The notes under the pieces are model-generated. The model was not told the DNA's origin and made no database searches. It saw only the letters and a program-made list of their open reading frames with translations. The translations under genes and the position numbers were made by a program. 64,000 nt of DNA, taken from assembly GCA_051362555.1 (NCBI GenBank), contig JBPQGU010000016.1:2542001-2606000 (forward strand), given 5' to 3'. Positions within the stretch are counted from its first letter, which is position 1; every line of letters starts with the position of its first letter. The DNA is from Lingula anatina. Lineage: Eukaryota; Animalia; Brachiopoda. Positions 42,601 through 64,000 of this stretch are shown here, piece by piece.

Positions 42601-42764
42601 TACAATTTATATCATGGGGAAAGTATGGTCAAGTTTTTATCTCATAAAGACTCATTCTCACCTCTGATGACAACTCCATAACCAGGGTCAGACACACATA
42701 TTTCTGTTCAACACTGTCCCCTGTAGATGGATGAAGACAAATGCTGATGACACAGGGACTAATC
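39602..42764 (-). CDS. RNF25: E3 ubiquitin ligase RNF25 (RWD + RING-H2). Exons 42662-42764, 42332-42399, 42043-42112, 41452-41676, 41022-41231, 39602-40836. 5' exons missing; apparent 1-bp frameshift near 40280
   Basis: Spliced translation LHPSTGDSVEQKYVCLTL..YPDEAPKIMIKNPRGL..MLYELIELAKESLTEGNIPHGQCVICL..CYHYFHCHCL..CPVCR closely matches known RNF25 motifs. Confidence 0.92.
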
Positions 42765-42802
42765 CTGAAATGATATAATTTACAATCAATAACTGCAGTT
42801 AC

Positions 42803-43995
42803 AGAAGATCATTCACTTGTTGGTTGAGAATTAGGTAAATACGATGTAAGATTTTTAATGTTTGAAGAATCATATCGTATGTCTGATTCAATGAGAGCAG
42901 CAGCTGGTGTTATATGTCGTAATCAACAGGTACTTTTTAGAATAAATGTATTAAATAATTGATCATATAAATCAGAATTAATTAAAGATTTAGATGAACA
43001 ATTACCATTTGATGGTTATAAAATGGAAAAAATTTTATTTCAAGTCTTAAAGATTATAAAATAAAGAAATTATGGAAAAAGTTCAAGGTTTTCAATATAA
43101 AGAAATTAAAGATCAAAAAAGAGTTATTTGAAAATTAAATCATATTCATTGTTAAGAGCTAATTTAATTAAAATGGAATATGTTGAAAATTTATGATTTG
43201 AAGCTACACGTGATAAATTAAGAAAAGACACAATTTTATGAGGTAAAACTGGTAACTTAGAAACTGGTATGTTTTCTTTGTATATGAAAAAAATTGTTGA
43301 TATTTCTTTTGAAGACAATATAAAAGATTTTAGAACAAATGAAAATTGAATACATTCACATTTTATGGTAGGTATTGACTTAGGATATACTTTTGATAAA
43401 ACTGTTGCTGTTATTGTAGCTATTTCACAAGATTTTAAAAAATTAGAATATTAGATACAAAAATCATAAAAATAAAAACAACTGTTTTAGATATAGAAAA
43501 ACAAATGCTATCAATTGTTGATTTTGTAAAAAGAAAATTAAAAATTTATGGTTATAATTTTGAAGAATATTGAGTTTCTGCAAATACAGTTCATGCAGTT
43601 CAACTTTCAATTGAAACTAAATTTCAACATATTTTTGGTGAAGAATTATTCTATTTTTACAATTTTAAAAGACCGCTTCCATTACTTGAAAGAACAAATC
43701 TTTTAAAGCAATTAATTTCTAATAATGCTTTGAAATTGTTAAAACACAAACTAATCAAAATTTTAAAATAGAATTAGAAAATTTAACATATGGAAATATA
43801 AACATTCCATGACAAACAAAACGTTTAGGTGAAGATGATATTGTTGAAGCATTTGAAAATGCAATTTTTCCAATGTTTAATCGCATATTTTCAAAAGCAT
43901 TTACACGTTGATATGATTTAGGTCCTACTGATTATTCAGATGCACAATTAAATTTAAAATCAGAATTAGAAAAAATAAAAAAACCCACTAAATAA
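42803..43995 (+). pseudogene. terL: 5'-truncated, frameshifted copy of the terminase large subunit gene
   Basis: Matches 61201-62398 except for five 1-bp homopolymer deletions within the coding part. Confidence 0.8.
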
Positions 43996-44006
43996 GTGGG
44001 TTTTTT
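43977..44006. terminator. Bidirectional intrinsic terminator between convergent operons (second copy 62381-62410)
   Basis: AAAAAACCCACT-AAATA-AGTGGGTTTTTT hairpin flanked by A and T tracts. Confidence 0.8.
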
Positions 44007-44089
44007 AACTATAATTTAATACTATACCAAAAATTTTCAATAAAAATATAATATTAAAAATACTCTTAAATAAATTATATACTATAATT

Positions 44090-44566
44090 TTATGATGGAA
44101 AGAAAAATTCTTCTAAGTTTAAATCTTTTTCAGATAAACCTATTTTTTCAATTTTTTCAATTTTTTCTAAATATTCATCAAATTTTTCAGGAATACCGTT
44201 TCTTGAAATAAAACTATTATATTTTTTTTCGTATTCTATTTCATCTGTTTGTTTAACATCATGAGCTTTTTTTATAAATGGTTTTATCAATGCTGCTAAA
44301 ACTATTTGAACAAATCCAGAAATTACAAACATGATTCAAGCACATTCTTCGCCATCAATTTTAATTTGTGATTTTCATTCATCTTTTGCAGATAAAATTA
44401 TTCCAATTAAAAATAATGCTAATGAACAAAAAGTTAAAAATCAATATAATAATTGAAATATACGTCTTATTCATGTAATTTTTGATCAACAAGTTGCAAT
44501 ATAATTAATTGTTGTATCATCTATTTTTAGATTTAATTTTTTATTGTTTATTTCGTTATTAAACAT
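44090..44566 (-). CDS. 158-aa membrane protein with two predicted TM helices, holin-like position (code 4)
   Basis: AGAAAGG SD before ATG at 44566. Open across TGA codons into the listed 44090..44332 ORF. Hydrophobic segments FLTFCSLALFLIGIIL and IMFVISGFVQIVLAALI. Confidence 0.75.
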
Positions 44567-44643
44567 TATTTGCCTTTCTTTTTTTTATTATAACTTTTTA
44601 TATTTGATATCTATTTTCTCTACTATCACTTTTATGTTGTTTC

Positions 44644-47600
44644 TTAACGTTTTTTTCTTTCATTAACTAATTCTCTTATACCACTTGGACTACCCCTGCT
44701 ACTATCTCTATCTGTGAAAGAACCAATTGCTCTAAACATTTTATCTTTTAAATCTTGGACTTTTTGATGTCAAGTAAGAGATTTATGTAAACTTTGTCCT
44801 CTTGAAGTTAAACCATCAATTCAGGCAGCAATTTTTTCATTTGTATTATAAGTTCTAACTAGATTTTGTATTGTAGCATCATTAAAACTAAAATCATCTC
44901 TAACAACCATATCATCTATCATTTCATTAGCAGATAATATTGTTTCATCTGCTGATATTGGTTCTGGTCCAAAATGGTGAATTAATCTAAATGTTATTCT
45001 TGTTCCATTAGCTGGTTTAATCACTTGTGTATAAGATTTATTTAAATCATAAGTATCAGCTAATGTAGATTTTACAAATACAACTTTTAAAAACTTAATT
45101 AATCTACCCATATGTTCCCAAGAACTTTCTTGATTTTCTCTTACATTAATATTTAATATTGAGTTTGAAGTAGTTATTCCATAATCACCTTTCATTTTAA
45201 TACCTCTTGATGAATATATTTGTCCTGGATAAATTGCTGTTGTTTTTGTACTTAAATATGTTTTTGCTACTGAGCTATTTGTTTCTATTTCTGTTGTAAA
45301 ACATCTTTTTCTATAAGTTCTATCTTGTTGTGTTTTAAAGAAATGTAATAAAGTAAAACAATTTTCAAGTCTTGGTGTAGCAGTAAATGTATATCTAGCG
45401 GTAGGACCTGGTTCAGCATTTAATAAATTAAATGAGTTTCAATTATAACAAGTAAAGGGAACAGTAAATCCTTCTTCCATTCTATTTCATAACATATTAT
45501 CAGTTGCATTTGTATCATTTGTAAATATTAAACCAGCAACAGCTAAAAATTTATCTTCTTGTATTAAATTGTTTTCTGCTTTTGATAATATGAAATCAAA
45601 ATCTACTTTTCAATTAGAGTTATTAATTTTTGAATTATCTTGGAATGTTAGTATTAAAAAATTGTCAGTAGTATGTCATACTGTAATTGCTTCTTTTGTA
45701 TTATTTTCAACTAATTTAGGAATACCTTCACTTCATTCAACAACAAAAGTTGGTTCTTCTCCACCAGCATCACCTTTATCACCTTTATCACCTTTAGGTC
45801 CTGCTGGTCCTGCTGGTCCTATTTGTCTATCAGCTCATCTAACATCTTTAACTTTTATATTATCTTTAAACTTAACATCATTTAAACTAATACCACCACC
45901 CGTTGGCCTTAAATTAGCAATTGTATTTTCAATATTATCAATTTTTTCTTTTAACGGGTCAAACTCATCTGTTTTTATTGTGGTAAGTGCATTTTGAACT
46001 GATGTTCTTGTTCTAGTTATAATATCATCTAATGTTCTTTTATTTATACCATCACTAGGTAATAATGGGTCTCCAACAGAAATTATTCTATTATTTCTTA
46101 ATGATATAGGTTTATGAAAACCTGTATAAGTTCCTGCCAAGAACATATTTTCAGTTCCAGCTACTTTTAATGATGCTTCATTATCACTATTTACTTCAAC
46201 ATCAAAATTACCTCATTTACTATCACCTGCTGGTCCTTGTTCTCCTCTTTGTCCGTGTGCACCTTGTGGTCCTATTGGTCCTCTTGGTCCTGTATCTCCT
46301 TTATCACCTTTAGGTCCTTGTGGTCCTGCTGGTCCTCTTGGTCCTATTCCACTACCGCCACTACTTGGTAAATTAGCAATAGCATTATCTAATTGCCTTT
46401 TGTTTATAGCATCTTTTGGTGCTGTTCCATCAGCAACATCCACTATTTTATTATTTTCTAAATCTAATGTTTTTCCACTAAATAAAAAAAGCTTATTATC
46501 TGTAAATTGTAAATATTTATTAATTAATGGTGATGGTTGTTTTCTTTCTAAAATACCTATATTAACAACTTTTTTACCACCTCTACTAATAAATTGTTTT
46601 ATATATATATCACCAACTTTTGTTCCGCCAGCAAATGTAGCATCACCACCTGAACCTCCACCACTAGGTAAATTATCTAAACGATTTTTATTATCAATAA
46701 TTCCTGCTGTATTAGCATTAACTCTTTCTTTTAATGGATCAAGTTCCTCTGTTTTTATTCTTGTAAGTGTAGTTTGTGTTGCTTCTTGTGTACTAGTTAT
46801 ATTTCTAGTATTTTGTGATACTTGATTTCTTAATGCATTTGTTGCTTGTTCTATATTATCTACATTTTGATTTGTTGTATCTAAATTAGAACTTAATTGA
46901 TTTATTTGAGTTCTAGCTGTTGTAATATTTGACCTGTTATTTCTAATATTTGTTGCATTTTCAAAAGTTTTGTTTTCTGTAAGTGTAATGTGTCCTGTTA
47001 AACTATCTACATCATCTCTAAGGTCTTTATTAATCTCGTATTGATTAGGTCCACCCTCTTCTTGATTATTAGTAGCTAATAATTCATTTGTTTTACTTGC
47101 ACCACCAACACTACTACCTGTTCCTGGATCACCTTTGTCACCTTTAGGTCCTCTAGCGTTTTCTTTTATAAAATTTTTAAAATCATTAGAACTTAAAAGC
47201 TTTGAAACCAATACACCAGCTGTTGCTGGATATTGATCAATAAATAAATCAAGAAAAGTAGCTCTTACAGCTTTAAAAAATTTATCATCATATTCTAATT
47301 GAATTTCTCTTTTTTTAATAACTTGATTTAAAAAAAAAATTGAAACTTGTTCTAGTTCAGAAATTACTGGAACAGAGTATTCAAACTTTAAAAATTGATT
47401 AACATCATTAACAGATATTGGGATTACTGAATAATTTTTATTAGTTCCAAAAGAATCATTTCCTTTTTCAAAAATAAATTTAATTAGTAAACAAATTGCA
47501 TTTCTTAGATGTAATTTGTCATTATTAGATAATGAATTTCATTTAGATTCTTCAGATAATTGATAATCATTTAAATCCCTGTTGATTTTCATCACAGCAA

Positions 47601-47802
47601 TTGTAAAATATTCTTGCAAGTATTCATTTGTAACATCTTTAATTGTTGGATCTAAAAATGTTAAATGAAGTTCTTTTGTAAAATATTGATAAACATCATT
47701 ATTATTCCTAATTTGTGGATTAGGAATTTTTTGTCCTGGATTTTTAGGATCATCAATTTCAAGTACTAAATTTTTATAATTTTTAAAAATATATTCAAAC
47801 AT
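44644..47802 (-). CDS. 1052-aa virion fibre protein with collagen repeats and coiled coils; possible head-tail adaptor-like N-terminus (code 4)
   Basis: Listed ORFs starting 47802, 47211, 46146 and 45195 are all in one frame, separated only by TGA. The first TAA is at 44644-44646. Gly-X-Y tracts and [14 protein letters not shown] / [14 protein letters not shown] fibre-neck-like motifs are present. Confidence 0.82.
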
Positions 47803-47826
47803 AATTGATATTTAAAAAAATTAAAA

Positions 47827-48906
47827 TTATGTATATTGAAAAGGTCTTCTTGTTCCAATTTTAATTCTTTTAATAAATTTTAAAGCTACTTGACCACTTG
47901 CTGAAACAAATTTGTCCCCTGATATCGGATCATGTGTATCAGGATCTGTATCTGTTCAAACTTCTTGAAAACCAACCACAGTTGTTGCAGAATTTATATA
48001 TTTTCCATCATTTTTAACTAAAATTACAGCATGAATATCTGAAAAATCAAATGATTCAGTATCATGTAAAATTCCAGCTGGATAATTGTTACCAAGTAAA
48101 TTATCTTCATAAATTGTAATTCCATTAACTTTTACAGCGGCTCTATTTTCTAGAATTTGTTGTACACTATGACCAAATCTACCTAAAGCAAATGTTATTT
48201 TTAAAAATGTAATTGGTGAAACAAATATTATGATTTTTTCTTTTTCAATTCCATCAGTAAATTGATCTATTAAATTTGTTATAGATAATGTTTGTTTTAA
48301 TAAATCATTTAATATTTTTCCATTTTCATCTGAATGTGGATATGTGGTATCATTAGAACTATCAAAATTAAATGATGGATTATATTGATTAATATTTCCA
48401 GCAGCAGGTGTTGTTTTAGCTAATAATTTTCAAGATGTCTTTGAAGCCGTTGGAACTTCTCACTCTTTTGAATTTGCAGTATCAATTACTGTTTTAAAAA
48501 ATCTTGCAGCAATTAATTTAGTTTTTTGAGCAGCTAAACTTGACATTACAACTCCTCTTAAATCCCCTGTTTTAGTGAACAATGCTGCATCTGCTGAATC
48601 TGTTGTGAATACAACTTTATCGTAATTTTCCATGAAAATATTTACATCTTCAGTTTTTAATTTTTGTCTTTCTGTAGTTGAACCAACAGTTTTATATTGC
48701 AATTTATATGCAATCTTTTTTTGTACTGTTGCTCCTTTGTTAACTTCTTCAATTTGAATAAAACCTGCATGAAATAAACCTGATACTTTATTTAAAATAC
48801 GTGAAATGTCTTCATACATTAATGTACCAGCTATTTTATTACCTTGTCCATCTTCAATAGATAAAGTTCTAGCTAATTTTTGTGTAGTTGTTGAAATACT
48901 TGCCAT
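47827..48906 (-). CDS. 359-aa putative major capsid protein (code 4)
   Basis: Open across three TGA to TAA at 47827. Size and position directly after a scaffold-like gene fit. IIIFVSP..KVNGITIYEDN resembles HK97-fold A-domain motifs. Confidence 0.7.
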
Positions 48907-48908
48907 TG

Positions 48909-49355
48909 TTAATTATTTTCTCCTTGATCAAAAACAACTCTTGGTTGTTTTTTTGGTGTTTTATCAATTTTAATTTGTTTTTCTTTAGAAAATGATGGAA
49001 TTGAACTTTCCATTGTTTCTTCTTTTTCTGTTTCAATTTTATTATTTTTTAATGGTTTTTCATTAAAAAATGAAGATAAATTTAAATCATTTATATCTAA
49101 ACCAGCTGATTTTGCTTTATCTATTTTTTGAATGTATTCATTAAATTTATCTTTTTTACCACCATCTAAAATAAATTTATTTTTTTTAAATTCTAATTTT
49201 TCATTTTGAAATGTTTTTTTTTGAAATTCAAAATCTTTTTTTTCTTTTTTTAATTTTTCTATTGTTTCTTTTGTTTCTTCTTGAAGTTTTTTAAATTCTT
49301 CTTTTTCTTTTAAAAAGTTTAAATATTCATTTGTTTTGTTAAAATCATTTTCCAT
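48909..49355 (-). CDS. 148-aa charged coiled-coil protein, putative capsid scaffold
   Basis: K/E-rich helical protein immediately upstream of the putative MCP. Confidence 0.6.
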   Translation of the reverse strand: MENDFNKTNEYLNFLKEKEEFKKLQEETKETIEKLKKEKKDFEFQKKTFQNEKLEFKKNKFILDGGKKDKFNEYIQKIDKAKSAGLDINDLNLSSFFNEKPLKNNKIETEKEETMESSIPSFSKEKQIKIDKTPKKQPRVVFDQGENN

Positions 49356-50254
49356 AATATAATAATGTAATAATAAAAGAGAGGAAAAAGCATTCCATGT
49401 TTAATGTAATATATTTAAGTATAATAAATCAAAAAAAATTATTTTTTAAAAACAACAAACAAAAAATGCTTTTTTTTATTAAAAACAGTAAACAAAAAAC
49501 AAACACAAAACAAGTCCTACCTATCTTACGTAAGCTGTCCGCCTACTGCTTAATTTAATTATATATTAATTTAATTTATTTTTATTTTTTTTATAATTTA
49601 AGTTAATAATTTTTTTTAAAGCTTTTTTAGAAGTGTTGGGAAGTTATTATTATTATAAAAAAAATATAGCTTTCCCACTACTATTACCAGAATAGTATAT
49701 ATATACATATATATTAAGAAATATATAATATATAGAAAAATATGTCAAAAATCAATTTATTATAAAAAATTTATATTGTTAAATTTTTTTATATATCGCT
49801 ATTCTGTATAATGAGCAGCGGGTTTTGCCAACTTTTTTATAATAATTAAATTTATTATATTATTTAAATTAAATAATTACAAGAAAAAATATTCTAATTT
49901 AATACTATACCAAAAACAACCAATAGCAAGTCCTTGCAAATTTATATACAAAAAAAAGCAGACATTTCTGCCTGCTAATGTTGTGTAAGTAACAAAAATT
50001 TTTTAAAAAAAACAAATCCAATAGTTTTAAAAAAAAATTTATTTAATTCTAGTTTTAACAATACAACTAGCAAGTCCTTACTATCTTATTATCTATCAAA
50101 AACAAAAAATAAAAATATTTATAAAAAATATTTTAAATAAATAATAAATATATATTATAATAAAAATATTAAATAAATAATATTAAATATATAATAAAAA
50201 TATTAAATAAATAATATTATTTATTATAATAATAAAAATATAGAAAGGAAAAAT
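49356..50254. promoter_or_regulatory. Extremely AT-rich divergent control region (promoters, possible origin)
   Basis: A 900-bp non-coding gap lies between divergent operons. CAAGTCCT motif x3 (49511, 49927, 50071), imperfect hairpin 49633-49681, AT direct repeats 50150-50240. Confidence 0.6.
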
Positions 50255-50407
50255 ATGAAAGTAACAATAACAGCCAGAGTTGAACATGACTTATGAAAAA
50301 AAATTCAAAAGTTATGTTTTAAAAAAGGAATTACATTTTCAAGTTTTGTAAATGATTCAATAAAAATGCATTTTGAAAATGAAAAATTAATTAGTAAAAA
50401 AAATTAA
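50255..50407 (+). CDS. 50-aa ribbon-helix-helix (CopG/Arc-like) regulator
   Basis: Strong SD. MKVTITARVEHDLWKKIQKLCFKKGITFSSFVNDSIKMHF follows the RHH pattern. Confidence 0.7.
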
Positions 50408-50432
50408 ATAAAAAAAGAAAGAAAACACAAAA

Positions 50433-50606
50433 ATGGAATATTATAAAAATCAAAAAATAGTTAAAAAATATTTGAATTGTTTTGAATTAGAAAATGGTGA
50501 AATTATTAAATGTAATAATGGAATATGTTTAATATGTAAAAACATTAACTATTTTATGGATGATAAAAAAATAGTTAGTTGTAATTGTTTTAAAAATCAA
50601 AAATAG
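50433..50606 (+). CDS. 57-aa Cys-rich protein
   Basis: MEYYKNQ..KCNNGICLICK..SCNCFKNQK. Confidence 0.6.
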   Translation: MEYYKNQKIVKKYLNCFELENGEIIKCNNGICLICKNINYFMDDKKIVSCNCFKNQK

Positions 50607-50621
50607 AAAGGAAAAAAACAA

Positions 50622-50741
50622 ATGACATATTGTAAAAATTGTGAAAAAAATGTAGATGCTTACCACATTCAATGTGAGTGTATGTATCCATCTTGTAAAT
50701 ATAATATTTGCACTGAATGTAAAAAAATAATTGTTGATTAA
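50622..50741 (+). CDS. 39-aa Cys-rich Zn-finger-like microprotein
   Basis: SD AGAAAGGA. MTYCKNCEKNVDAYHIQCECMYPSCKYNICTECKKIIVD. Confidence 0.65.
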   Translation: MTYCKNCEKNVDAYHIQCECMYPSCKYNICTECKKIIVD

Positions 50742-50777
50742 GAAATAAAAACTGAAAGGAAAAAAAAATAAAAAATA

Positions 50778-50981
50778 ATGAATTTATTAGATCTAGAAAA
50801 AATAAGAGTTTGCAGAGTTTGTAAAATTAGAGAAAGTAATCAAAATTTAAAAAAAATAATTGTTTCTAATGTTTGAAGAATGAAAAACAGTTATTTATAT
50901 GATGAATGATTTGTATGTAGAAAATGTTTAAGAATAAAATTTAAAAAAGATAATTTACAAAGTTATTCATATTTAAAATAG
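50778..50981 (+). CDS. 67-aa protein with two CxxC motifs (code 4)
   Basis: CRVC..CRKC, open across two TGA. Confidence 0.65.
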
Positions 50982-50994
50982 AAAGGAATAAATA

Positions 50995-51321
50995 ATGGAA
51001 TTGAAATATAGAGCTTGTTGTGAATGTTTTGAAGTTATAAGTTCAGGAAAGTATTATTTAACAGCTGAAAGTTTTGGAAGATATACAAGATGTTTTAAAT
51101 GTCATTATAAAAAGAATAGGATAAAAAAAATGAAAATTGAAGAAAAAATGAAATGTTATAGTTGCTTAAAAATGTTTAATTCTAAAGAACTTAAACATAT
51201 TTATGTTAATGAATGACCAAATCAATTAGATAATGCATATGTTTGTACTGCATGTTTTAAAAGCAATATTAAAAAAGATTTTATAGTATATGAAAAGATT
51301 AAATGAAAGGATATTAAATAA
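50995..51321 (+). CDS. 108-aa protein with four CxxC motifs (code 4)
   Basis: CCEC, CFKC, CYSC, CTAC. The fourth motif appears only after TGA read-through. Confidence 0.7.
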
Positions 51322-51440
51322 TGGGAAAAGTAAACTTAGTAATAGAAATATTAAAAGAGTTAAAAAAAATAAATAAAAATTTACAAGAAATAAATGATAC
51401 TTTAATGACTGGGTTGGACGTTATAGATGTAACAGATTAA
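51321..51440 (+). CDS. 39-aa coiled-coil microprotein
   Basis: TAATG coupling. MGKVNLVIEILKELKKINKNLQEINDTLMTGLDVIDVTD. Confidence 0.5.
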   Translation: MGKVNLVIEILKELKKINKNLQEINDTLMTGLDVIDVTD

Positions 51441-51462
51441 ATAGATTAAGGAGTGTATAAAT

Positions 51463-51816
51463 ATGAAAATAATAAAAACAAAAGAATTTAAACTAACAAA
51501 AGAAGAAATTAAAGAATTTGAAAAAGATCAAAAAAAATATGATAGACATTATTATTTTAAATGTTTAGGATGTAACAAAAGATACAACAATTTAAGAAAC
51601 GATACAATTCAAAGCCAATATTGTTCTTTGGTTTGTAAAATAGAATATTTTGACAAAAATGAAAAGTTGTCAAAAGAAAACCCTAAAGCATGAAAAAAGA
51701 AATTAGGTCTTAAAGATCTAGATGAAAGATTTTGAAATTTAAAACAAAAACACCAACAAAAACTAGATAAAACAATAGAAAAATTAAAAAAAGATACAGA
51801 AGGGAATAAAAATTAA
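51463..51816 (+). CDS. 117-aa protein with CxxC..YCSxxC treble-clef-like motif (code 4)
   Basis: SD AAGGAG. CLGC..YCSLVC. Confidence 0.65.
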
Positions 51817-52072
51817 AGCTATAAATGAAATAACAAAACTTAATTTAGATTGTAATTGTTATCCATGTTTTAGAGTAAAAAAAGGTGATATATCTTGTCA
51901 AGAAACTGCAAAATTTTTAATAATAGATAAAGAAAATAAATTTAATCAAAAGTTTTTATGTACAACATGTTTAAAAGAAAGAATTGATGATTTAGAATTT
52001 AAAAAAAATAAATTAGATGATGAAATTACACTTTTTAAAAATATGTTAAAGGAATTCAAAGAAAAAAAATAA
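51806..52072 (+). CDS. ~88-aa Cys-rich protein, start codon uncertain (ATA/ATT)
   Basis: Open frame with CNCYPC..C..CTTC, ending in a TAATG overlap. SD-like AGAAGGGA upstream but no ATG. Confidence 0.45.
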   Translation: MKIKAINEITKLNLDCNCYPCFRVKKGDISCQETAKFLIIDKENKFNQKFLCTTCLKERIDDLEFKKNKLDDEITLFKNMLKEFKEKK

Positions 52073-52491
52073 TGGAAAATATAAAAATAATTAAAAATTT
52101 AATATGTAAAAATTGTAAAAAAAAAGATTATCAATTTAATGGACAAAAAGTTTATATGAATAAAAGAACTAATGAAATTTTATGTTCATCATGTTTTGCA
52201 AAAAGACATATTGGTAAAGATCAAGTTGATATTGTTCAACTTAAATTTCCAGATGCAATTCAAAGAATTATAGACTTAGAAAAAAAACTTGAATTTTTAA
52301 AAGGTAAAAATTTTTTAATTAATAAAATGTTGAAATTTATTGCATTAAAACCAAGTTATACTTCAGAAGAAATAACTAAAGAATTATTAAAAACTTCATT
52401 TGGAATTAATGAAGAAATTATACAAACAGAAAAAGAAATAGAAACAAAAGTAAATGAAGATATCAAAAATAGGGAGATATTAAATGATTAA
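52072..52491 (+). CDS. 139-aa protein with two CxxC motifs and a coiled coil
   Basis: CKNC..CSSC. Confidence 0.7.
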   Translation: MENIKIIKNLICKNCKKKDYQFNGQKVYMNKRTNEILCSSCFAKRHIGKDQVDIVQLKFPDAIQRIIDLEKKLEFLKGKNFLINKMLKFIALKPSYTSEEITKELLKTSFGINEEIIQTEKEIETKVNEDIKNREILND

Positions 52492-52657
52492 AACAAATAC
52501 TATTAAATATTGTATGAATTGTAACCGTTTAACTATTTGATCTATTCTTAAAGATATAAATATAAAAAAAATTGGAAAAAAAGATTTGTTCTATTGTGAT
52601 TTTTGTTTTGGTGATAAAAAAGGAGTAGATATAAGAAATTATTCTTGAATGAAATAA
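52484..52657 (+). CDS. 57-aa Zn-ribbon-like protein (code 4)
   Basis: SD AGGGAG. YCMNC..YCDFC. Confidence 0.65.
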
Positions 52658-52830
52658 TGAATTATAAATCAATACTATATGCTTTAGAAAAATGTAATGA
52701 ATGTGAAGATCCACGTTCAAATTTAAAATGTGAATATGGATGTGGTTGATGTTTCCTCCATTGCATTGGACATTATACAAAAGATGGAAAAATTGTTTTT
52801 TCTAAAAAATATCAAAAAAATATAAAATAA
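52657..52830 (+). CDS. 57-aa Cys/His-rich protein (code 4)
   Basis: TAATG coupling. CNEC..CEYGCGWCFLHC..H. Confidence 0.6.
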
Positions 52831-53104
52831 AAATATCGGGGTTGGTTGATTGTTTTTATTGTATTATTATTTCATTTCTCATAATTACATTTTCCAACCC
52901 CAAAATAAAAATATAAAATAAAAAATAAATATGGTAAGTTTTTATTTCTTACCACTAAATACCATTCATACCGCAACCATTGTTAAAATAATGTATTATC
53001 TTATTCTTTTTATTTCTTGGTTGCGGTTGTTTTTTAAATAAAAAAAATAATATTAAAATATAAAAAAAATATTATAATAAAAATTATAGAAAGGAAAAGA
53101 AAAA

Positions 53105-53641
53105 ATGAAAATTGAATTTAAAAAAGAAGAAGAAAAATCAGATAATGAAATATTAAATAATATGAAAAAATATTCAAAAAAAGAATTGATTGATTATTTT
53201 GAAAAATTAATTTTTATGAAATCTTTATTAGAAGATGAAAAAGATAAAGTAAATGAATATAGAGAAAATGCTTTAGAATGTTTAGAAAGAATTATAAATA
53301 AAGCATCAAGATTAGCTAAATTTTTTGAAAAAGAAATTTCAGAAAGAAAAGATGAATTAGAAATTAAATATGGTAAAAAATTAGCAGATTTTTTAAATAA
53401 ATATCATTTTTATCAAAATGGAGATGATCACTTTCATGTTTGTAATGATAATGATGATGGTGGTATTTTTAATATATATATTACTGATAAAAAAGAATAT
53501 AACAAATATAATTTTTACAATAAAGTTATAGAACCAAGTTGAGGTCAATTTTGTTATTATAGTTTTGGTTCAAACAATTTAGATGAATTTATTGAAAAAT
53601 TTAATAATATGTTAAAAGAAATTAAAGATAGAAAGGAATAA
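53105..53641 (+). CDS. 178-aa hypothetical protein (code 4)
   Basis: Strong SD. The listed ORF extends through TGA at 53540 to TAA at 53639-53641. Confidence 0.7.
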
Positions 53642-53643
53642 AT

Positions 53644-53823
53644 ATGAATAAAGAATATGAAGCTTTAAAGTATAGAAAAAAAACAGTAACTACAATTATA
53701 GATTATGCTGTTTTTTTAGAAGCTAAAAGATTATCTTTTGAACAAGAAATAACTTTTTCAGAATTTGTAAATAGAGCATTAAAGGAGTATTTAAAAATTC
53801 AAAATGAAAAATGAAAAAGATAA
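53644..53823 (+). CDS. 59-aa ribbon-helix-helix regulator
   Basis: KKTVTTIIDYAVFLEAKRLSFEQEITFSEFVNRALKEYL, similar to the 50255 protein (ITFSxFVN). Confidence 0.7.
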
Positions 53824-54007
53824 AGAAGCAAAATTTAATTTAGTAGAAGAAACATGACAAGAACTAACTAAAAAAATGTTTCCAAAACATAAAATGAAAA
53901 AAATGCTTTCAGAAGAATTTAAAGAACTTTTAAAAGAGTTTTTAAAAAAAGAAGGTTATATAAAAAAAACCGATTTGTTAGATTTTATAAAGAAAGGAAA
54001 AGAATAA
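53804..54007 (+). CDS. 67-aa RHH-like protein (code 4)
   Basis: SD AAGGAG. AKFNLVEETWQELTKK..LSEEFKELLKEFLKKE. Confidence 0.5.
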
Positions 54008-54010
54008 AAA

Positions 54011-55732
54011 ATGATTGATACAAATAAAAATAAATTAAATTTAAAAGAAATAGGAATAGTAACAATAGCTACAACTTCTTTAGTTGTTGGTGCTGTAGCT
54101 TTAGGAATGATTGCAAATCAACCTAAAACAGTTGTTGAAAGTAAAATTTCAAAAGAAAAAGAAGATAAACTTTTAAAACTTTTAGAAAAAAAAGATTTAA
54201 CTATTGATGAAATTAAAAAAATAGTTAATAAAGCTGTTTTAGATGCTTTAAAAAATGTTAAAACAGGTAAAGATGGTTTACCAGGACCACAAGGACCTAA
54301 AGGTGATAAAGGTGAACCCGGAATTAAAGGTAAATCTTTTGATAATTCAGAATTAGAAGCAATTAAAAGTACTTTAGATAATTTAGAACAAAAAATAAAA
54401 GAATATGGTGATTCTATTTATGATTTAAAAAATAATCCAAAATTTAAAGGTTTACCAGGACCGCAAGGTCCTAAAGGTGAAAAAGGTGACAAAGGCGAAA
54501 AAGGTGATACTGGACCAGAAGGACCACATGGACCACCCGGACCAAGAGGTGAAAGAGGTGAACCAGGACAAAGAGGAGAAAGAGGTTTACCAGGACCACA
54601 AGGACCAGCAGGTAAAGATGCGCCAGTTCCTACAGTTGAAACATTAAGACCATTAGTAAATGAAGTTATATCAAGATTATGAAGTGAACAAAATAAAAGA
54701 TTACAAGAAGTAAATAATGATTTAGCATCTGCTAGTCGTAGCTTACAATTAAGATACAATGAATTAAATACAAAATATCAAGAATTATATAGTGATTATT
54801 TAAGTAAAGTTGGTGAAGATGGTGAATTAACTTCAAAAATAGAAGAATTTAAAAATAAAGTAGATGAAACTAAAAGATTAATAGATTCTTCAATTGAAAG
54901 AATTGGTACAGAAAAACAAGCTATTGATGATCAAATAAATGCTTTAAAAGAAAAAGTTAAAAAAGTAATTGAAAATCCAAAAGATTTTGTTTGAGAACAT
55001 TTAGAAGATAATATTCAAGAATTGATAAATAATCTTGAAGCACCACAAGGTGAACCAGGACCAGGTCCAACTAAAGAACAAATTGCAGAAGCTGTTGATG
55101 CTTGATTTTTAAAACATCCAGCACTTTCAGGACCTAAAGGTGAACCAGGTGATAGAGGACCACAAGGACCAAGAGGTTTTGCAGGAGAAAGCGGAAAAGA
55201 TGTAACACCTAAACAAATAATAGATGCATTTACAGCCTTTATAAATTCTAATGCCTTTAGAAATTCTATAAGAGAAAAAGTTAGAAATTATGGTAATGAA
55301 GAATTAGAAACTTTAAGAACAGAATTACAAGGTATTAAAAATTCAATAATACCATTAATTGGAAGACAAACTACACCTGATGAATTAAACAGAGATATAG
55401 CATTTGAAAATGAATTACTTAAAAAATCATTATCTGGTAATTTAGGAATAACTGATGAAACAAAAGATGAATTATTAGAATTTGCAAAAATATTTAAAAA
55501 TGAAATTTATAAAGTAACACCTCGTTCACTTTTAAATAATGGAGTAACAACAAAAACATGAATATTTGGTAATTTTAGAATAACTATTTTTTCTAATAAA
55601 AAAACACTTGTTCAACTTGAAAATATGAATTATTCAGATACAACAAAATGAATTAGAATGCATGTTAATATGGTAGGTAATGGTTGAGATTTAACACCAC
55701 TTGAAAATAATGATAATGTAGATGAAAAATAA
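54011..55732 (+). CDS. 573-aa N-terminally membrane-anchored collagen-like / coiled-coil surface protein (code 4)
   Basis: Hydrophobic IGIVTIATTSLVVGAVALGMIA segment and several Gly-X-Y tracts. Open across TGA to TAA at 55730. Confidence 0.82.
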
Positions 55733-55764
55733 AGCGATTGAGAAGTAAATAGAAAGGAATAAAT

Positions 55765-55799
55765 AAAAAAAACGGATGATAAAATATCATCCGTTTTTT
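55765..55799. terminator. Bidirectional intrinsic terminator
   Basis: AAAAAACGGATGATA-AAA-TATCATCCGTTTTTT. Confidence 0.85.
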
Positions 55800-55982
55800 G
55801 TTATAATGTTATATGATCTTGATCTATTAAATTTATTAATAGACTTTTTCTTTTTTTTATTTTTTTGTTTAAAGATGTTTTCATGATATTCCTTTCTTTT
55901 GCAAAAAAATAATTACCTCTATTTTTATTTAAAAAATAGAGGTATTTTCTTCAAAAACAAACCAAAACGCGCATTTCACACA

Positions 55983-56036
55983 TTACTATAGACTATATAA
56001 TATTATATATATATAATATTATATAGTCTATAGTAA
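55983..56036. repeat. Perfect 54-bp palindrome
   Basis: TTACTATAGACTATATAATATTATATA|TATATAATATTATATAGTCTATAGTAA. The arms are exact reverse complements with no loop. Confidence 0.95.
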
Positions 56037-56116
56037 AATATATAAATGAAATGTATATATTTTATGAAAAAATCCAAAAATTCAAAATTTCAAAACAGGG
56101 GGGTATAATTTTTAAT

Positions 56117-57448
56117 ATGGCAAATAAACAACCAATTGAATACAAAAAATTCATTGATATAGGTAAAATCATATCAATTGTATTTACAAATTTAGAATTT
56201 GGACGTGGTATATATTTTGAAACTGAAGATAAAGAATTAAATAAATTATGATTAACTTTAAATAAAAAAAATAATATTAATGGTATTGTTTGAAGATTGC
56301 TTTATGAAAAAAATAAATATGGAAATCAAGTTTTAAAGTTTGATTTAATTAATTCAAAAGAAAAAGATATAAGATTAATCATTCCTAATTTTAATAATTT
56401 AAGAATTACAAATGCATATGAAACTGACATGATTCTTATGGAAATAGAAAATCATCCAATAACAGTTTCAGGTCAAGTTACACTTGATTATTTGATTAGA
56501 GAAAATTGAAATAAAGAAACATATAGATTGACATTTTTTTATCAAAATAAACAATTAACATTTGCAGAATTTTTAACAAAAATTCCTGATGAATATCAAA
56601 AAGAAAAAGTACAATCATTATTTAATATTAAAGAATACAAATTAAATAAATCAAATATTAATTATGAAAGAAAAAATCCATTTAATGACATTCCAGCTGT
56701 TCTTTTTTCAACACCAACACAAAAAAAATTATTAGAAAATGAAGAATCTTTTTCTGATCTACTTGATAGATTATTTAATGAAATGATTAATGATGTTGTT
56801 TATTCAAGACCATTTACAAATTTCATTACAAATAATAAAAACTTACCAAATTATTTTAAAAAATATGGTGTTCAACCACCAATCAATTTTTCAACAAATA
56901 CAGTATCAAGAGACGATAAATCAATAACTATAGCTCCAAAAGAAAGATTATCTGTTTTAACTGCTGCTATTGAAAAAACAATTTCTTTTGCTTTTAATCA
57001 AGCAAATACTTCTTATATTAAACAATTAGCATCTGTACCATCAAATTCAAATGATTTAGCAAATTCAGCTGGTTCTAGAAATTCAGACATTGCAAGATTT
57101 AAAACAAATTATTTATTAAAATTATTTTTTAAAAAAATATTTAAAATCTTTAAATTAGATAATAAAAAATTTAAAATATATCTTTTAGAAGCTGATCAAA
57201 GTAAAGAATTACAAATTAAAAATATAGCTGAACAAGTAGCTATGAATTTAATTTCAAAAGAACAAGCTAAAAAACAATTAAATGTTGAAGAAAATACAAC
57301 AGAATCTGAAATTGCTAAAGAAAATAAAAAACAAATTGAAACAGATATAGCTTCTTCAATATCAGAACAAAAAATAAAACCTGAACAAGCAAAACCTGAA
57401 CAAGCAAAAACAAAAGAAGAAACAAAAGATAATGTCAGCTCAAATTAA
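56117..57448 (+). CDS. 443-aa putative portal protein (code 4)
   Basis: Three listed ORFs join in frame across TGA. Size, an N-terminal DKELNKLW..NNIN..LLYEKNKYGNQVLKF pattern and a C-terminal LISKEQAKKQL helix resemble SPP1/A118-type portals. Confidence 0.65.
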
Positions 57449-60400
57449 GTTTTATATAAAAAGAAGTAGAAGAACTCCATTTTTTAAATTAAATTCAAAT
57501 ACAGATACATTTTTTTTCCCATTCTATGTACAAGATGAATTTGATTCAAAATTTACATACAATAAAATAAATTTTGAACGTGTATATTCTGGAAATAAAA
57601 CAACAACTTTAAAATTGATAGATTGAGAACAACAAATGGTTCCTTATGATTTAACAACAAATTCTGAAATACCTTTTGAAAATATAGATAAAAACAGTGT
57701 TTTTAAACGAAAATTTAACATAGGAACGTTTTTTATAGGTAAAGTTCTTTCTTTAAAAATTAGAAATCAATTTACAAAAAAATATGGTTTTATTCATCAA
57801 AAATTAATAAAATCTACTTCAGTTTATTTTAATTCTGAAGATAAATCTTTAGCTTCATTTATTTGAGATGAAAAAAATCAATCAATTAAAGAAGAAAATA
57901 TATATTTATTTTTTATGGCACCTGAAATTGCAGGAGATGATATTTTAAAACCAGTAAATGTTAATATTCAATTAGATTTATATGGAAGATTTATTTGTGC
58001 AATTGTAGATTTTACATCAGTTACTGAAGAATTTAAAGAAAAAGGCAAAAATATTGATGCAGCCATTCAATTTGGAGCTCCGGGTGAAATACCAATTTTA
58101 CCTACTGTTAAACCAACATTAATTTATAATCCTAATGTTCCAAAAAATTTAACAAAAAACAATATATTATTTTTTGAACCTGAAAAACAAATAACATTTA
58201 AAAATGAAAATAATGAAGATATAACATTAAATTTGTATCTACAAACACAAGGGACAAAACAAGCTTATATTGATGTTCGTTATTTTGAAAGAATTAAACC
58301 AATTAAAAATATTCAATTAAAAATTAAAGGTGAAGTTGGATTTGGTGGTATTAAAATTATTGGAAGAAAAATAATAAAAAATACTAAAAATGAAATAATT
58401 TATGGAAGGCCACAAAATTTATTTGTTCATAAATTACATGAACCAATTTTTAATGTCTTTGATAAAACAAAAAATTTTAATAATAATTTTATAATAATTT
58501 CTAATTTACAACCTATACGACAAATTTGAACAGATGTTCAAAGATTGGAAAGTTTTTATTCCAATATAAATCCTGATGTTAAAAGATCATCACAAATGAT
58601 TTTAAAAATAGATACAAGTTATGATAATATTATTCCTAAAAATGAAAAAAATGAAATATTAAATACATTTCCAATATCAAATTCAGATGAAAAATTTCCT
58701 TTAACTTCAAGAAATAAACTAATTGGAAAAAATACTATTGCATATTCAAAATACTCTGATTTTAAACTAAAACGTAATGATATAGTATCAAATAATAAAT
58801 TGATTGTTTATGATAATGATTTTATTAATATTTCTAAAATTTCACCTGAAGAATTTATAAATTTCAATCCATTTTTAATTGATAACATCCAATATTTACA
58901 AATTGGACAAACATTGCTTTCAAATAACAAAGGTGAAGCACAAGCAGCAGTTAATACATCAATAGGACTTGGATCAGATTTTATTTTTAAATTATCAAAA
59001 AAAATATTTGCATTTATAAAACCAAGTGCAATAGTTTCAACGTTTTTTCAATGGAGTCCTCATTCTTGATTTGTAGGAAAAAAAATATTAAAATTAAGTT
59101 CAAAAATCAATTTATTATTTTCACGTGAAATCATGGATTTTTTTGCTGCTGAACTTCCAAAAGGTAGAATATCAACTGATTTTTATATTCCACTTGATTT
59201 TTTTTTAACTGGATTTAGAAATCAATTTTCAAGATTTTTAGCAACAGAAGATATTAACAAATTTTTTAATATGGAATTAACAAATAGAGCTTTTTTAAAA
59301 AAGAAAAATAGTTCTAATATTGAATTGGTTGATACAGAAACTTTAAGAAAAGGAACATATTTTATTACTAAAATTCCATTTAAAACTGCAGAAGCTGATG
59401 AAGAAGGATTTTTAATAGATGCAATTGAAGTAACTGTTTTAGGACAAAGAATTTTAGAATTTTCTTTTTTTGATTCTAGCGGTGAACTTTCAAATTATTT
59501 TAGAATCAAAACACAATCTTTATATGCTTTTAATATTTCAGAAATTAAAAATACTATTCAACTTTCAAAATTAAATGAAAATTTTTCATCAAAAGAAGAA
59601 TTTATAGATACTGTATTAAATCAAAATAGAAAAGAAGCTGTTCAATTAGGATACTATATAGATGAAATTGAACAAAATATTAAAAATTTAGCTACAAGAC
59701 AAGAAAAATTAAATTATTTAAATTCATTAATAAATTCATTTACATTTCCTGAAATAGAATATTCAACTTCAATTTTACATGATAGAACAAAACAAAATTA
59801 TGTTAGAAACATAAACAAAAGATTTATTAAAGAAGTTGATTTTTCTAATGGTTGAAATTTTATAAAAAAACATATTAGATATATAGGTCAAGAATTTACA
59901 TTATTTGAAAATATTGGAGAAGCTAGAGATTGAATACTTAATAAATTTAAACTTAAATTAACAACTAAAACAAAAATAGATTTAGAAGTTAATACTGAAA
60001 ATTATTTAACTATACAACAAAAAGATTTTGATGAAAATCCAGAAGTAACTAGAATAGTACATGGAAGAGGTACACCGCCAGGTGGAAGAAAAGTAACTGT
60101 TGTTGAAGCTCCAGAGCTTAAATTAACTGATACAACTTCTGTTTCAGTTTCATATTTAGATGAAATACCTAAATCTAAATGAGTAAGAACAAGTCCATTT
60201 AAACAAATAAAAGAAAATTGAAATTATCCGCAAGAATTATCAAAATTAAAAAATTATTCTGATTTAAATAACATAACAAGTAATTTCCATTTACGTTTCG
60301 AATTTGAAGGAGATGATATTTTAATTAAAAGAACTTTTAATTTATGAAAATATTACTCTCCAAATGTATTTCATAGCCCTTATTCATGATCAAACTTTGA

Positions 60401-60653
60401 AGGTAATGGTCAAGAAATAGTTTTACAAAACGGAGATGAAACTTCACAATATAGAGATTTATTTTTAAATACATTTGACATTTATATTGAAAATTTAGAT
60501 GTTACATTAAATGTTAACACTGGTAAATTTGAAATATCATTTTTAATTAAAAGAATAAATTATGTACATTCTAGAGGATATAAAATTGATACAACAAAAA
60601 GAATGTATCATGAATTTTATATAAATTTTAAAATGGAAATGTTAAAAAAATAA
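57432..60653 (+). CDS. 1073-aa putative tail/structural protein (code 4)
   Basis: Listed ORFs at 57432, 57636, 57915, 58545 and 59133 share one frame, broken only by TGA. It ends in a TAATG overlap with terL. Function is inferred from position. Confidence 0.7.
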
Positions 60654-62398
60654 TGAATAAAGACTATTTAAAAAATTATTCTTTACAAAAAAAAACAAAA
60701 AATTTTGATTTTGAATCAGAATGAAAAAAATGATTATTTTTTATTGATACTCAAAATTTAATTTTTTTTCCAAAACTTAGAAGAACATTTCCAGAACTAT
60801 TTAAAAAACCAACAGGTAGATTAAAAAAAGAAATTAAAAGATTACCTAAAAGTTGAGAAAATAGACCTGATTTTACACGTGAAGATATGTATGGTTCAAG
60901 AGCAAACGGAAAAACATTTAATTGAATACTTTATCAATGATATTTAAGAGATTTGTTTGCTTCTTTAACTTTTTGTTTTGTATGGACTAGAGTAAGGTTG
61001 AAAGAATGTTATGAAGTTTTTCGAACAATTCAAATGTTAGGTCCATTAGATTTTAAAAAAAGATTAAAACAAAAAGGTTATAGCAATAATCATCATCAAA
61101 TAAATAAAATTCATATTTCAAAAGATGAATTAATTATTGAATATGGCAAAAGTACTTTTAGAGTTATAAATTTAATTGGTAGAACAGATTCAGTACATCA
61201 AGAAGATCATTCACTTGTTGGTTGAGAATTAGGTAAATACGATGTAAGATTTTTAATGTTTGAAGAATCATATCGTATGTCTGATTCAATGAGAGCAGCA
61301 GCTGGTGTTATATGTCGTAATCAACAGGTACTTTTTAGAATAAATGTATTAAATAATTGATCATATAAATCAGAATTAATTAAAGATTTAGATGAACAAT
61401 TACCATTTGATGGTTATAAAATGGGAAAAAATTTTATTTCAAGTCTTAAAGATTATAAAAATAAAGAAATTATGGAAAAAGTTCAAGGTTTTCAATATAA
61501 AGAAATTAAAGATCAAAAAAGAGTTATTTGAAAATTAAATCATATTCCATTGTTAAGAGCTAATTTAATTAAAATGGAATATGTTGAAAATTTATGATTT
61601 GAAGCTACACGTGATAAATTAAGAAAAGACACAATTTTATGAGGTAAAACTGGTAACTTAGAAACTGGTATGTTTTCTTTGTATATGAAAAAAATTGTTG
61701 ATATTTCTTTTGAAGACAATATAAAAGATTTTAGAACAAATGAAAATTGAATACATTCACATTTTATGGTAGGTATTGACTTAGGATATACTTTTGATAA
61801 AACTGTTGCTGTTATTGTAGCTATTTCACAAGATTTTAAAAAAATTAGAATATTAGATACAAAAATCATAAAAATAAAAACAACTGTTTTAGATATAGAA
61901 AAACAAATGCTATCAATTGTTGATTTTGTAAAAAGAAAATTAAAAATTTATGGTTATAATTTTGAAGAATATTGAGTTTCTGCAAATACAGTTCATGCAG
62001 TTCAACTTTCAATTGAAACTAAATTTCAACATATTTTTGGTGAAGAATTATTCTATTTTTACAATTTTAAAAGACCGCTTCCATTACTTGAAAGAACAAA
62101 TCTTTTAAAGCAATTAATTTCTAATAATGCTTTTGAAATTGTTAAAACACAAACTAATCAAAATTTTAAAATAGAATTAGAAAATTTAACATATGGAAAT
62201 ATAAACATTCCATGACAAACAAAACGTTTAGGTGAAGATGATATTGTTGAAGCATTTGAAAATGCAATTTTTCCAATGTTTAATCGCATATTTTCAAAAG
62301 CATTTACACGTTGATATGATTTAGGTCCTACTGATTATTCAGATGCACAATTAAATTTAAAATCAGAATTAGAAAAAATAAAAAAACCCACTAAATAA
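60653..62398 (+). CDS. terL: 581-aa terminase large subunit (code 4)
   Basis: Walker A GSRANGKT, Walker B FLMFEES, RNase-H-like nuclease VGIDLGY and terminal EDDIVEA. I count 14 in-frame TGA against a single TGG. Confidence 0.88.
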
Positions 62399-62493
62399 GT
62401 GGGTTTTTTTAACTATAATTTAATACTATACCAAAAATTTTCAATAAAAATATAATATTAAAAATACTCTTAAATAAATTATATACTATAATT

Positions 62494-62970
62494 TTATGAT
62501 GGAAAGAAAAATTCTTCTAAGTTTAAATCTTTTTCAGATAAACCTATTTTTTCAATTTTTTCAATTTTTTCTAAATATTCATCAAATTTTTCAGGAATAC
62601 CGTTTCTTGAAATAAAACTATTATATTTTTTTTCGTATTCTATTTCATCTGTTTGTTTAACATCATGAGCTTTTTTTATAAATGGTTTTATCAATGCTGC
62701 TAAAACTATTTGAACAAATCCAGAAATTACAAACATGATTCAAGCACATTCTTCGCCATCAATTTTAATTTGTGATTTTCATTCATCTTTTGCAGATAAA
62801 ATTATTCCAATTAAAAATAATGCTAATGAACAAAAAGTTAAAAATCAATATAATAATTGAAATATACGTCTTATTCATGTAATTTTTGATCAACAAGTTG
62901 CAATATAATTAATTGTTGTATCATCTATTTTTAGATTTAATTTTTTATTGTTTATTTCGTTATTAAACAT
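62494..62970 (-). CDS. Second copy of the 158-aa two-TM protein
   Basis: Identical to 44090-44566. Confidence 0.75.
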
Positions 62971-63047
62971 TATTTGCCTTTCTTTTTTTTATTATAACTT
63001 TTTATATTTGATATCTATTTTCTCTACTATCACTTTTATGTTGTTTC

Positions 63048-64000
63048 TTAACGTTTTTTTCTTTCATTAACTAATTCTCTTATACCACTTGGACTACCCC
63101 TGCTACTATCTCTATCTGTGAAAGAACCAATTGCTCTAAACATTTTATCTTTTAAATCTTGGACTTTTTGATGTCAAGTAAGAGATTTATGTAAACTTTG
63201 TCCTCTTGAAGTTAAACCATCAATTCAGGCAGCAATTTTTTCATTTGTATTATAAGTTCTAACTAGATTTTGTATTGTAGCATCATTAAAACTAAAATCA
63301 TCTCTAACAACCATATCATCTATCATTTCATTAGCAGATAATATTGTTTCATCTGCTGATATTGGTTCTGGTCCAAAATGGTGAATTAATCTAAATGTTA
63401 TTCTTGTTCCATTAGCTGGTTTAATCACTTGTGTATAAGATTTATTTAAATCATAAGTATCAGCTAATGTAGATTTTACAAATACAACTTTTAAAAACTT
63501 AATTAATCTACCCATATGTTCCCAAGAACTTTCTTGATTTTCTCTTACATTAATATTTAATATTGAGTTTGAAGTAGTTATTCCATAATCACCTTTCATT
63601 TTAATACCTCTTGATGAATATATTTGTCCTGGATAAATTGCTGTTGTTTTTGTACTTAAATATGTTTTTGCTACTGAGCTATTTGTTTCTATTTCTGTTG
63701 TAAAACATCTTTTTCTATAAGTTCTATCTTGTTGTGTTTTAAAGAAATGTAATAAAGTAAAACAATTTTCAAGTCTTGGTGTAGCAGTAAATGTATATCT
63801 AGCGGTAGGACCTGGTTCAGCATTTAATAAATTAAATGAGTTTCAATTATAACAAGTAAAGGGAACAGTAAATCCTTCTTCCATTCTATTTCATAACATA
63901 TTATCAGTTGCATTTGTATCATTTGTAAATATTAAACCAGCAACAGCTAAAAATTTATCTTCTTGTATTAAATTGTTTTCTGCTTTTGATAATATGAAAT
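63048..64000 (-). CDS. Second copy of the collagen fibre gene, C-terminal part only
   Basis: Identical to 44644-45596. Confidence 0.75.

Follow-up and report, generated by a model that had tools for sequence, protein, structure and literature searches.

An undescribed, complete 18.4-kb TGA=Trp phage genome, apparently a distant relative of the Spiroplasma NSRO-P/P58 phages, likely fused to animal DNA by a chimeric read in a Lingula anatina assembly

The Mollicute phages sequenced to date stem from vertebrate, insect and plant hosts. Their number is small according to the accessible part of one source (PMC13375369), which also describes the group 3 Spiroplasma viruses as short-tailed, with genomes of 16-22 kb, some of them being released by budding. 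For the phage NSRO-P, the accessible part of a further source (bioRxiv 10.1101/2021.12.09.471767) gives contigs of ~19 kb with 21-24 open reading frames (ORFs) and circular permutation, and no recognised integrase, lysis or tail genes. In the present study, we analysed 64,000 nucleotides (nt) of the brachiopod Lingula anatina (GCA_051362555.1, contig JBPQGU010000016.1, positions 2,542,001 to 2,606,000; the window), in which a 362-bp satellite is followed by animal-type DNA with a RING-finger gene and, from position 42803 onward, by a block of 23% GC that holds a phage genome. The closest described systems are Spiroplasma poulsonii NSRO-P1/P2 and MSRO-Br-P1 (OL689226; Spiroplasma group 3/SRO viruses) and the P58-P54-P123 locus of S. 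citri. With good confidence, we regard the element as an undescribed, complete double-stranded DNA phage that reads TGA as Trp, stands at some distance from NSRO-P/P58, likely infects a Mollicute, and was likely fused to animal DNA through a chimeric read.

The block 42803..64000 comprises 1.15 tandem copies of an 18,404-bp unit (self-BLAST), and its two overlapping ends, 42803-45596 and 61201-64000, are 99.8% identical over 2,800 nt, with zero substitutions and six one-base losses in the left copy. The single clean copy on which the description below is based is the following:

45597-64000, no strand: single clean phage copy, from self-BLAST and GC content

GC content is 23.0% in the unit versus 36.5% in the flanking animal DNA. 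The 21 called ORFs fill 88.8% of the unit and stop at TAA (19) or TAG (2), and one extra Cys-rich frame without ATG (51788-52071) lies beyond them. The 18.4-kb phage genome is complete and real. This bears out the original prediction of a TGA=Trp element of that size with about 20 genes, and re-calling the genes with translation table 4, as had been proposed there, raised the share of the unit covered by ATG ORFs of at least 100 amino acids (aa) from 32% under code 11 to 71%. Other parts of that prediction held within limits: the genes were said to be continuous only when TGA is sense, and in-frame TGA occurs in 16 of the 21 ORFs, not in all; they were said to carry Shine-Dalgarno (SD) sites, and AAGG/GGAG motifs of this kind stand at most 25 nt from the start in 15 of 21 ORFs (13 of 14 early ones), the same 25-nt upstream scan finding none before the portal, 1073-aa, TerL, 148-aa and 1052-aa genes. 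Likewise, the tandem repeat behind the proposed restart at 61201 was seen, but this position is no biological boundary, because it lies inside TerL and mirrors the cut made by the junction at 42803. The tandem restart, which was seen in one assembly, would suit a circular, a concatemeric or a terminally redundant linear genome alike.

The codon evidence argues that TGA is read as Trp (genetic code 4). Among 5,425 codons there are 64 TGA versus 3 TGG, i.e., 95.5% A-ending, much as in the other two-codon families (92-99%, Lys, Glu, Gln and Arg being among the A-biased), and the Trp share would fall to 0.06% without TGA. Three TGA positions of the window TerL align with Trp of Spiroplasma TerL. 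In TGA columns aligned to five relatives, the 53 residues include W 22, F 10, L 6, Y 5 and G 0 times; the W matches are partly circular if the relatives were translated with code 4, which counts against us, and the F/Y/L pattern is not circular. Code 25 (TGA=Gly) was rejected on this zero of 53 and on the lack of TGA at any of the 63 Gly positions of the collagen runs, so that the outcome which had been named in advance as refuting Trp, TGA columns at Gly, was looked for and not seen.

The unit is identified as a phage by its predicted virion genes:

60653..62398, plus strand: large terminase TerL, 581 aa with 14 TGA, by profile homology and motifs
47827..48906, minus strand: predicted major capsid protein, 359 aa, by profile homology
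56117..57448, plus strand: likely portal, 443 aa, ORF open from 56051, by weak profile match, size and position
57432..60653, plus strand: 1073-aa P123/NSRO-like protein, by profile homology
48909..49355, minus strand: 148-aa charged protein, candidate scaffold, by position only

TerL bears a Walker A motif (GSRANGKT), a Walker B motif (FLMFEE) and an RNase H-like GID motif, and the Walker A/B and nuclease residues are invariant across its family. The family profile aligns with the Spiroplasma P58/NSRO TerL family (PF04466) over 390 columns (hhalign 97.7%, E 1.4e-12). A full HMMER search of 1.84 billion representatives returned eight TerL matches, the best at 38% identity (E 6e-94), one of which, a repetitive 3,475-aa protein, was excluded; the longest contigs of these relatives are mostly of 16-27 kb, and more distant relatives match Terminase_6C above cut-off as well as PHROG terminases. 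Word-seeded protein searches with TerL and capsid yielded nothing at E<=0.001 among 6,503 and 2,938 candidates. Judged by its motifs and homology, the protein has both the ATPase and the RNase H-like nuclease that define a Caudoviricetes terminase.

For the capsid, portal and P123-like tests, profiles were built from NSRO-P2 and related prophages, with the window sequences excluded; profiles from close Spiroplasma copies alone missed TerL, portal and P123, and broader sets detected all three. The capsid profile scored 31 bits (E 6.9e-12) versus 2.0 for the best decoy (hhalign 93%), and relatives of the capsid match phrog_267 major head or are annotated as P22-like capsid, which by homology only points to an HK97-fold major capsid protein. 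The portal profile reached 18.9 bits versus 4.6 for the best of 40 decoys, over the N-terminal ~95 aa only and with hhalign at just 14%, and the family member L106 matches phrog_533 portal; the 443-aa protein is likely a portal, a weaker assignment than the others. The 1073-aa protein aligns with the Spiroplasma P123/NSRO 1073-aa protein over 502 columns (hhalign 96.9%, E 1.4e-10), its whole-sequence hmmsearch score not being significant, and is likely a virion protein of a short tail or of ejection. The 148-aa gene stands immediately upstream of the capsid gene, an arrangement also found in NSRO-P2, MAV1 and locus L134, and by this position only is likely a scaffold gene, profile tests giving no significant match to scaffold proteins. 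TerS homology was not significant in the window proteins. No major tail or tape-measure gene was recognised in the unit, so any tail is likely short; a fibre-like gene is present, and the virion is predicted to be tailed. Library scans matched window proteins directly only at collagen/tail-fibre repeats, a YadA stalk and two Arc-like repressors, and sequence searches of PDB were blank. In Foldseek, the terminase nuclease of SPP1 came up at ranks 2 and 4 (E 0.38 and 0.51) and was not taken as evidence.

In a TerL tree of 22 rows (P0037, a longer member of the cluster, standing in for P0024; P0025 excluded; deep forks without resolution), the window TerL falls together with five metagenomic proteins (89/93; seen in 92% of 200 bootstrap trees) and is separate from both Spiroplasma and MAV1. 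Searching 50,697 phage records, NSRO-P2 and MAV1 included, by tblastn with TerL, capsid, portal and the 1073-aa protein gave nothing meaningful, and plasmids likewise; no relative was found in INPHARED or IMG/VR. Pattern scans of IMG/VR, GTDB contigs and JGI metagenomes also found no relative, but these blanks are weak because patterns with Trp will probably overlook DNA in which it is coded by TGA, as the same scan did with the Spiroplasma TerL in IMG/VR. Nor does the literature searched, in which subscription journals are largely missing, hold a description of this phage. The call of a phage thus gained homology for TerL, capsid and, more weakly, portal, and its status as an undescribed lineage agrees both with the searches, which met no high identity to a described phage, and with the TerL phylogeny suggested in the original prediction, which sets the window TerL in a separate metagenomic clade. 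As to the idea that TerL and capsid match phage folds, profile homology speaks for it and the fold searches returned nothing significant.

The features that bear on how the phage came to stand beside animal DNA are those around the junction:

42802..42803, no strand: animal/phage junction inside TerL, with 1 shared base
42803..43994, plus strand: left copy of the 3' part of TerL, with frameshifts from one-base losses (self-BLAST)
39602..41661, minus strand: animal flank outside the phage, with RING-finger gene pieces (zf-RING_2, E 2.4e-5)

A true endogenous insertion in the animal genome, germline or somatic, with a decayed left copy, would account for the direct join of animal and phage without an N gap and for the frameshifted left TerL copy. 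Comparison of four runs (X1, X3, X6, X18) over 40600-44100 makes it highly improbable. The animal contigs of X1, X3 and X6 pass 42803 and continue with the same non-phage sequence, that of X1 being identical to the window over 40600-42803 (2.2 kb), while the phage contigs of X6 and X18 extend to the upstream side of 42803 in TerL sequence that resembles the stretch ahead of 61201. The changes in the left copy are all one-base losses of homopolymer type, without substitutions and lying only within 1.2 kb of the junction, and the X6 and X18 contigs supply the missing base at five of the six sites; they are likely read errors. Codon use, SD sites and terminators are intact, and only one base is common to both sides, so that an 8-bp GATC microhomology considered for this site was rejected. 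Among the 21 pieces listed, out of 78, there is none that crosses the junction. The join at 42803 is most likely an assembly chimera, from a chimeric long read, and not an integration; the image of a phage hidden in an animal scaffold most likely has to be given up, since in three runs the animal contigs go on as animal DNA. The distribution among runs also agrees with a chimeric read that was joined to a free replicon of varying abundance: 7 of 19 listed runs (four samples from three studies, 2015, 2018 and 2025) hold 0.27-0.97 of the words of 52001-62000, one of them possibly being the source of the window, and two further DNA or unknown runs hold next to no phage words. No RNA run stands among those listed as carrying the phage. 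X18, from a fourth study, carries an ~89%-identical variant (96 differences in about 890 nt), and the phage thus recurs in four studies from 2015 to 2025 under the same species label.

Alternatively, the tandem copy could reflect a chromosomal array, i.e., a temperate phage, tandem prophage or gene-transfer-agent-like element carried in a Mollicute chromosome through host or insertion-sequence recombination. The closest named relatives are multi-copy prophages beside transposases, NSRO-P likewise has no recognised integrase in the accessible part of its source (bioRxiv 10.1101/2021.12.09.471767), and two repressors of the ribbon-helix-helix (RHH) type suggest a quiet state; yet the unit lacks a recognised transposase, RecT, exonuclease or RuvC, the depth in X18 is very high and relatives of the family lie on stand-alone contigs of 16-27 kb, and we consider this origin unlikely. 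Quite unlikely, in our view, is a phage of some non-Mollicute bacterium with TGA=Trp, or a satellite that needs a helper for replication. The host was not found, no replication gene was recognised, and the TerL clade stands apart from the Spiroplasma clade, near the unplaced P0026/P0027, all of which would suit such an origin; against this, four structural genes have relatives of the Spiroplasma order in similar order, and the unit encodes its own capsid, portal and terminase.

Several observations tell against a free Mollicute phage joined to animal DNA by error. Pfam, PHROGs and NCBIfam give no direct match for TerL, portal or capsid; single-sequence AlphaFold models were uninformative (pLDDT 35 and 33), and fold searches with them gave nothing significant. 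Named genomes are absent from the window TerL clade (89/93, unstarred). No host genome, 16S or CRISPR (short palindromic repeats, clustered and regularly interspaced) spacer was found, DNA matches being short in 314 scored genomes (87 not scored). X1 and X3, despite holding 0.97 and 0.83 of the 52001-62000 words, have almost no phage cover at 42823-44100 and zero depth just past the junction, in data from which a filter removes records. Contigs drop rare forms, and a rare true insertion could escape; moreover, contig depth, ~1,630 for phage versus ~42 for animal in X18, is not a copy number. Three near-exact DNA matches were rejected as spacers: they are collagen repeats or A+T-rich coding DNA in ordinary genes.

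Beyond the head genes, the unit encodes the following:

44644..47802, minus strand: 1052-aa fibre/adhesin-like protein with collagen repeats and a YadA-stalk motif (library scans)
62494..62970, minus strand: 158-aa protein with two hydrophobic stretches, second copy at 44090-44566
54011..55732, plus strand: 573-aa collagen/coiled-coil protein with an N-terminal hydrophobic anchor (Pfam Collagen E 6e-16, hydropathy)
50255..54007, plus strand: early operon of ~15 small ORFs, nine of them Cys-rich (CxxC) (library scans)
50255-50407 and 53644-53823, plus strand: two Arc/RHH-like repressors (phrog_582 E 1.9e-5; phrog_3180 E 3e-5)

The portal, 1073-aa and TerL genes on the plus strand converge on the scaffold, capsid, fibre and membrane-protein genes on the minus strand. 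A head-tail-adaptor N-terminus, as in L134, was not significant in the 1052-aa protein, and the 573-aa protein is likely a host-surface protein. The C-terminal 50-aa domain of the 158-aa protein is shared with the 148-aa candidate scaffold (score 110, z 10.4, none of 1000 shuffles), and the likeness of 62494-62970 to 48909-49355 extends to the DNA level, marking an internal duplication; the domain was not seen in the six related scaffolds tested. One 139-aa ORF met only viral clusters in the Atlas comparison, at 0.84. No integrase, recombinase, replication gene, endolysin or long-tail gene was recognised in the unit, and library scans found no TerS, RecT, exonuclease, RuvC, polymerase, helicase, Rep or transposase in it, the same library finding RecT/exonuclease in L134.

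Three non-coding features frame these gene blocks:

49356..50254, no strand: divergent A+T-rich control region with three CAAGTCCT repeats and GC skew
55983..56036, no strand: perfect 54-bp palindrome with 27-bp arms and no spacer, just upstream of the portal gene
62379..62411, no strand: bidirectional terminator-like hairpin between the convergent late operons

The cumulative GC-skew minimum (50103) falls inside the divergent region, a candidate replication origin. The palindrome, part of which is made trivial by a 12-nt TA core, compares with a longest arm of 15 in 30 block shuffles and an arm of 22 bp in one of 18 comparison loci; it is a candidate operator, origin, pac or resolution site, and may resemble hairpin-telomere resolution sites, no resolvase gene being recognised in the unit. 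Further terminator-like hairpins lie at 55767-55799, similar to that at 62379..62411, and at 55914. A ~22-bp direct repeat, identical at 49895-49916 and 62416-62437, marks both borders of the opposed gene blocks and reads like an extended -10 box on the minus strand. At 52831-53045, a non-coding gap of the early operon, there are two long G+C-closed hairpins with 0 Rfam matches.

The animal part of the window has features of its own. Positions 1-22021 are taken up by a tandem satellite of 362 bp with strong GC and AT skew, whose copies are very homogeneous (>99% alike) and whose array is broken near 12.7-13.3 kb, and a short tandem repeat of ~93 bp lies at 26536-26942. Runs with one species label show high polymorphism in the flank 40600-42803, with differences of up to ~6-7% in X18, as is typical of a large outbred population.

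Returning to the phage, the host is likely a wall-less Mollicute living in the animal; relatives of the phage sit in TGA-using genomes of the Spiroplasma order, which supports the Mollicute-type host of the original prediction as an inference. A life cycle can be proposed from the gene content. Transcription would start both in the divergent region near 50 kb and at a promoter ahead of the portal gene, serving the rightward early operon with its two RHH repressors, Cys-rich small proteins and membrane-anchored collagen protein, and the two convergent late operons, portal-1073aa-TerL and scaffold-capsid-fibre-membrane protein. The RHH proteins would exert control. As the unit has neither an integrase nor a recognisable replication gene, replication is likely to take place outside the chromosome, presumably on host enzymes. 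TerL may package concatemers headful into a small, likely short-tailed particle, which would explain the tandem, permuted copy. Adhesion could be mediated by the collagen/YadA fibre, and exit, likely involving the 158-aa membrane protein, would need no endolysin in a wall-less host; the lack of this gene had been noted in the original prediction, and library scans recognised none. A further-reaching idea, which we hold to be doubtful, is a minimal non-integrating phage family of animal-associated Mollicutes without its own replication or recombination protein, persisting as a high-copy episome, with the palindrome serving a host enzyme as origin or hairpin-telomere resolution site and the two-helix, scaffold-domain membrane protein tethering capsid assembly to the membrane for budding.

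In practical terms, the phage block is a contaminant to be cut from the animal assembly. Mollicutes of marine invertebrates carry large CRISPR arrays whose spacer targets were not identifiable, according to the accessible part of one source (PMC11535214). Searches with Pfam, PHROGs, NCBIfam and IMG/VR miss both the genome and its TerL clade, and the two can therefore serve as bait for CRISPR targets and for the hidden symbiont; the recurrence over ten years under one species label means that public reads can be used to test the host link. The membrane protein with its scaffold-like domain, moreover, gives a concrete starting point for studying the release of tailed phages from wall-less cells.

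How, then, does the element compare with known systems? Mycoplasma phage P1 (Delislevirus) shares code 4 and a collagen-repeat fibre, of which only the collagen repeat matches, and differs in its 11.7-kb genome, terminal repeats and own DNA polymerase, the repeats and the polymerase not being found in the unit. MAV1 and phiMFV1 are closer, with 15-19 kb, code 4, a similar gene series, an HtpE homologous to the window capsid (z 7.9 and 2.7) and an HtpN weakly so to the portal (z 3.6 and 3.3); unlike the unit, they carry a tyrosine integrase, excisionase, Rep and methylase, and the TerL/MarRP match is weak (hhalign 23%). As a separate observation, MarRP (in the MAV1 region L003:2900-9582 and in phiMFV1, L001) resembles a terminase in its motifs and its position, its annotation being that of a putative restriction endonuclease or regulator. 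Among genomes of the Spiroplasma order, the TerL profile matches 14 of 398 and the capsid profile 11 of 400, nearly all with in-frame TGA, in neighbourhoods of the order TerS-TerL-portal-~940 aa-scaffold-capsid-260 aa-adaptor/fibre with RecT and exonuclease. Prophages in eight genomes of this order (G035, G044, G053, G059, G064, G069, G104 and G024) give the best capsid match (37-39% over ~90 aa) and share the adjacency of portal and large protein and the scaffold-capsid-fibre order; unlike the unit, they are integrated and multi-copy, with a one-strand structural operon and RecT plus exonuclease. Isolated TerL-like genes with TGA (L107, L108 and L109, in G326, G146 and G382) form a clade of their own in small genomes of this order.

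In TerL, the nearest sequences are the metagenomic proteins P0020-P0024 and P0037 of the window clade (26-38% identity; ENA/Logan contigs up to 16-27 kb). NSRO-P/P58 resemble the unit in size (~19 kb), code 4, 21-24 ORFs, a homologous TerL, capsid and 1073-aa protein and, weakly, portal, in having the portal gene directly followed by the 1073-aa gene and a small gene followed by the capsid gene, and, for NSRO-P, in the absence of recognised integrase, lysis or tail genes and the circular permutation reported. They differ in that the window TerL is only ~20% identical and in a separate clade; that portal-1073aa-TerL stands versus their TerS-TerL-portal-P123 on one strand, with no TerS match in the window; that the late operons converge, without RecT, RuvC, SSB/helicase or transposase; and that a collagen fibre, a collagen surface protein and a Cys-rich early operon are added. 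The earlier view that the element matches neither known layout, P1 or MAV1/phiMFV1, took its comparison no further than these: NSRO-P has four homologous structural genes and a largely similar layout, and the capsid is homologous to HtpE of MAV1. To judge from these homologies, the phage is distantly related to the Spiroplasma NSRO-P/P58 phages, whose layout was already known, and would work like group 3 while standing outside that group; among the small Mollicute phages, it represents a lineage not yet described, of a kind that is already known.

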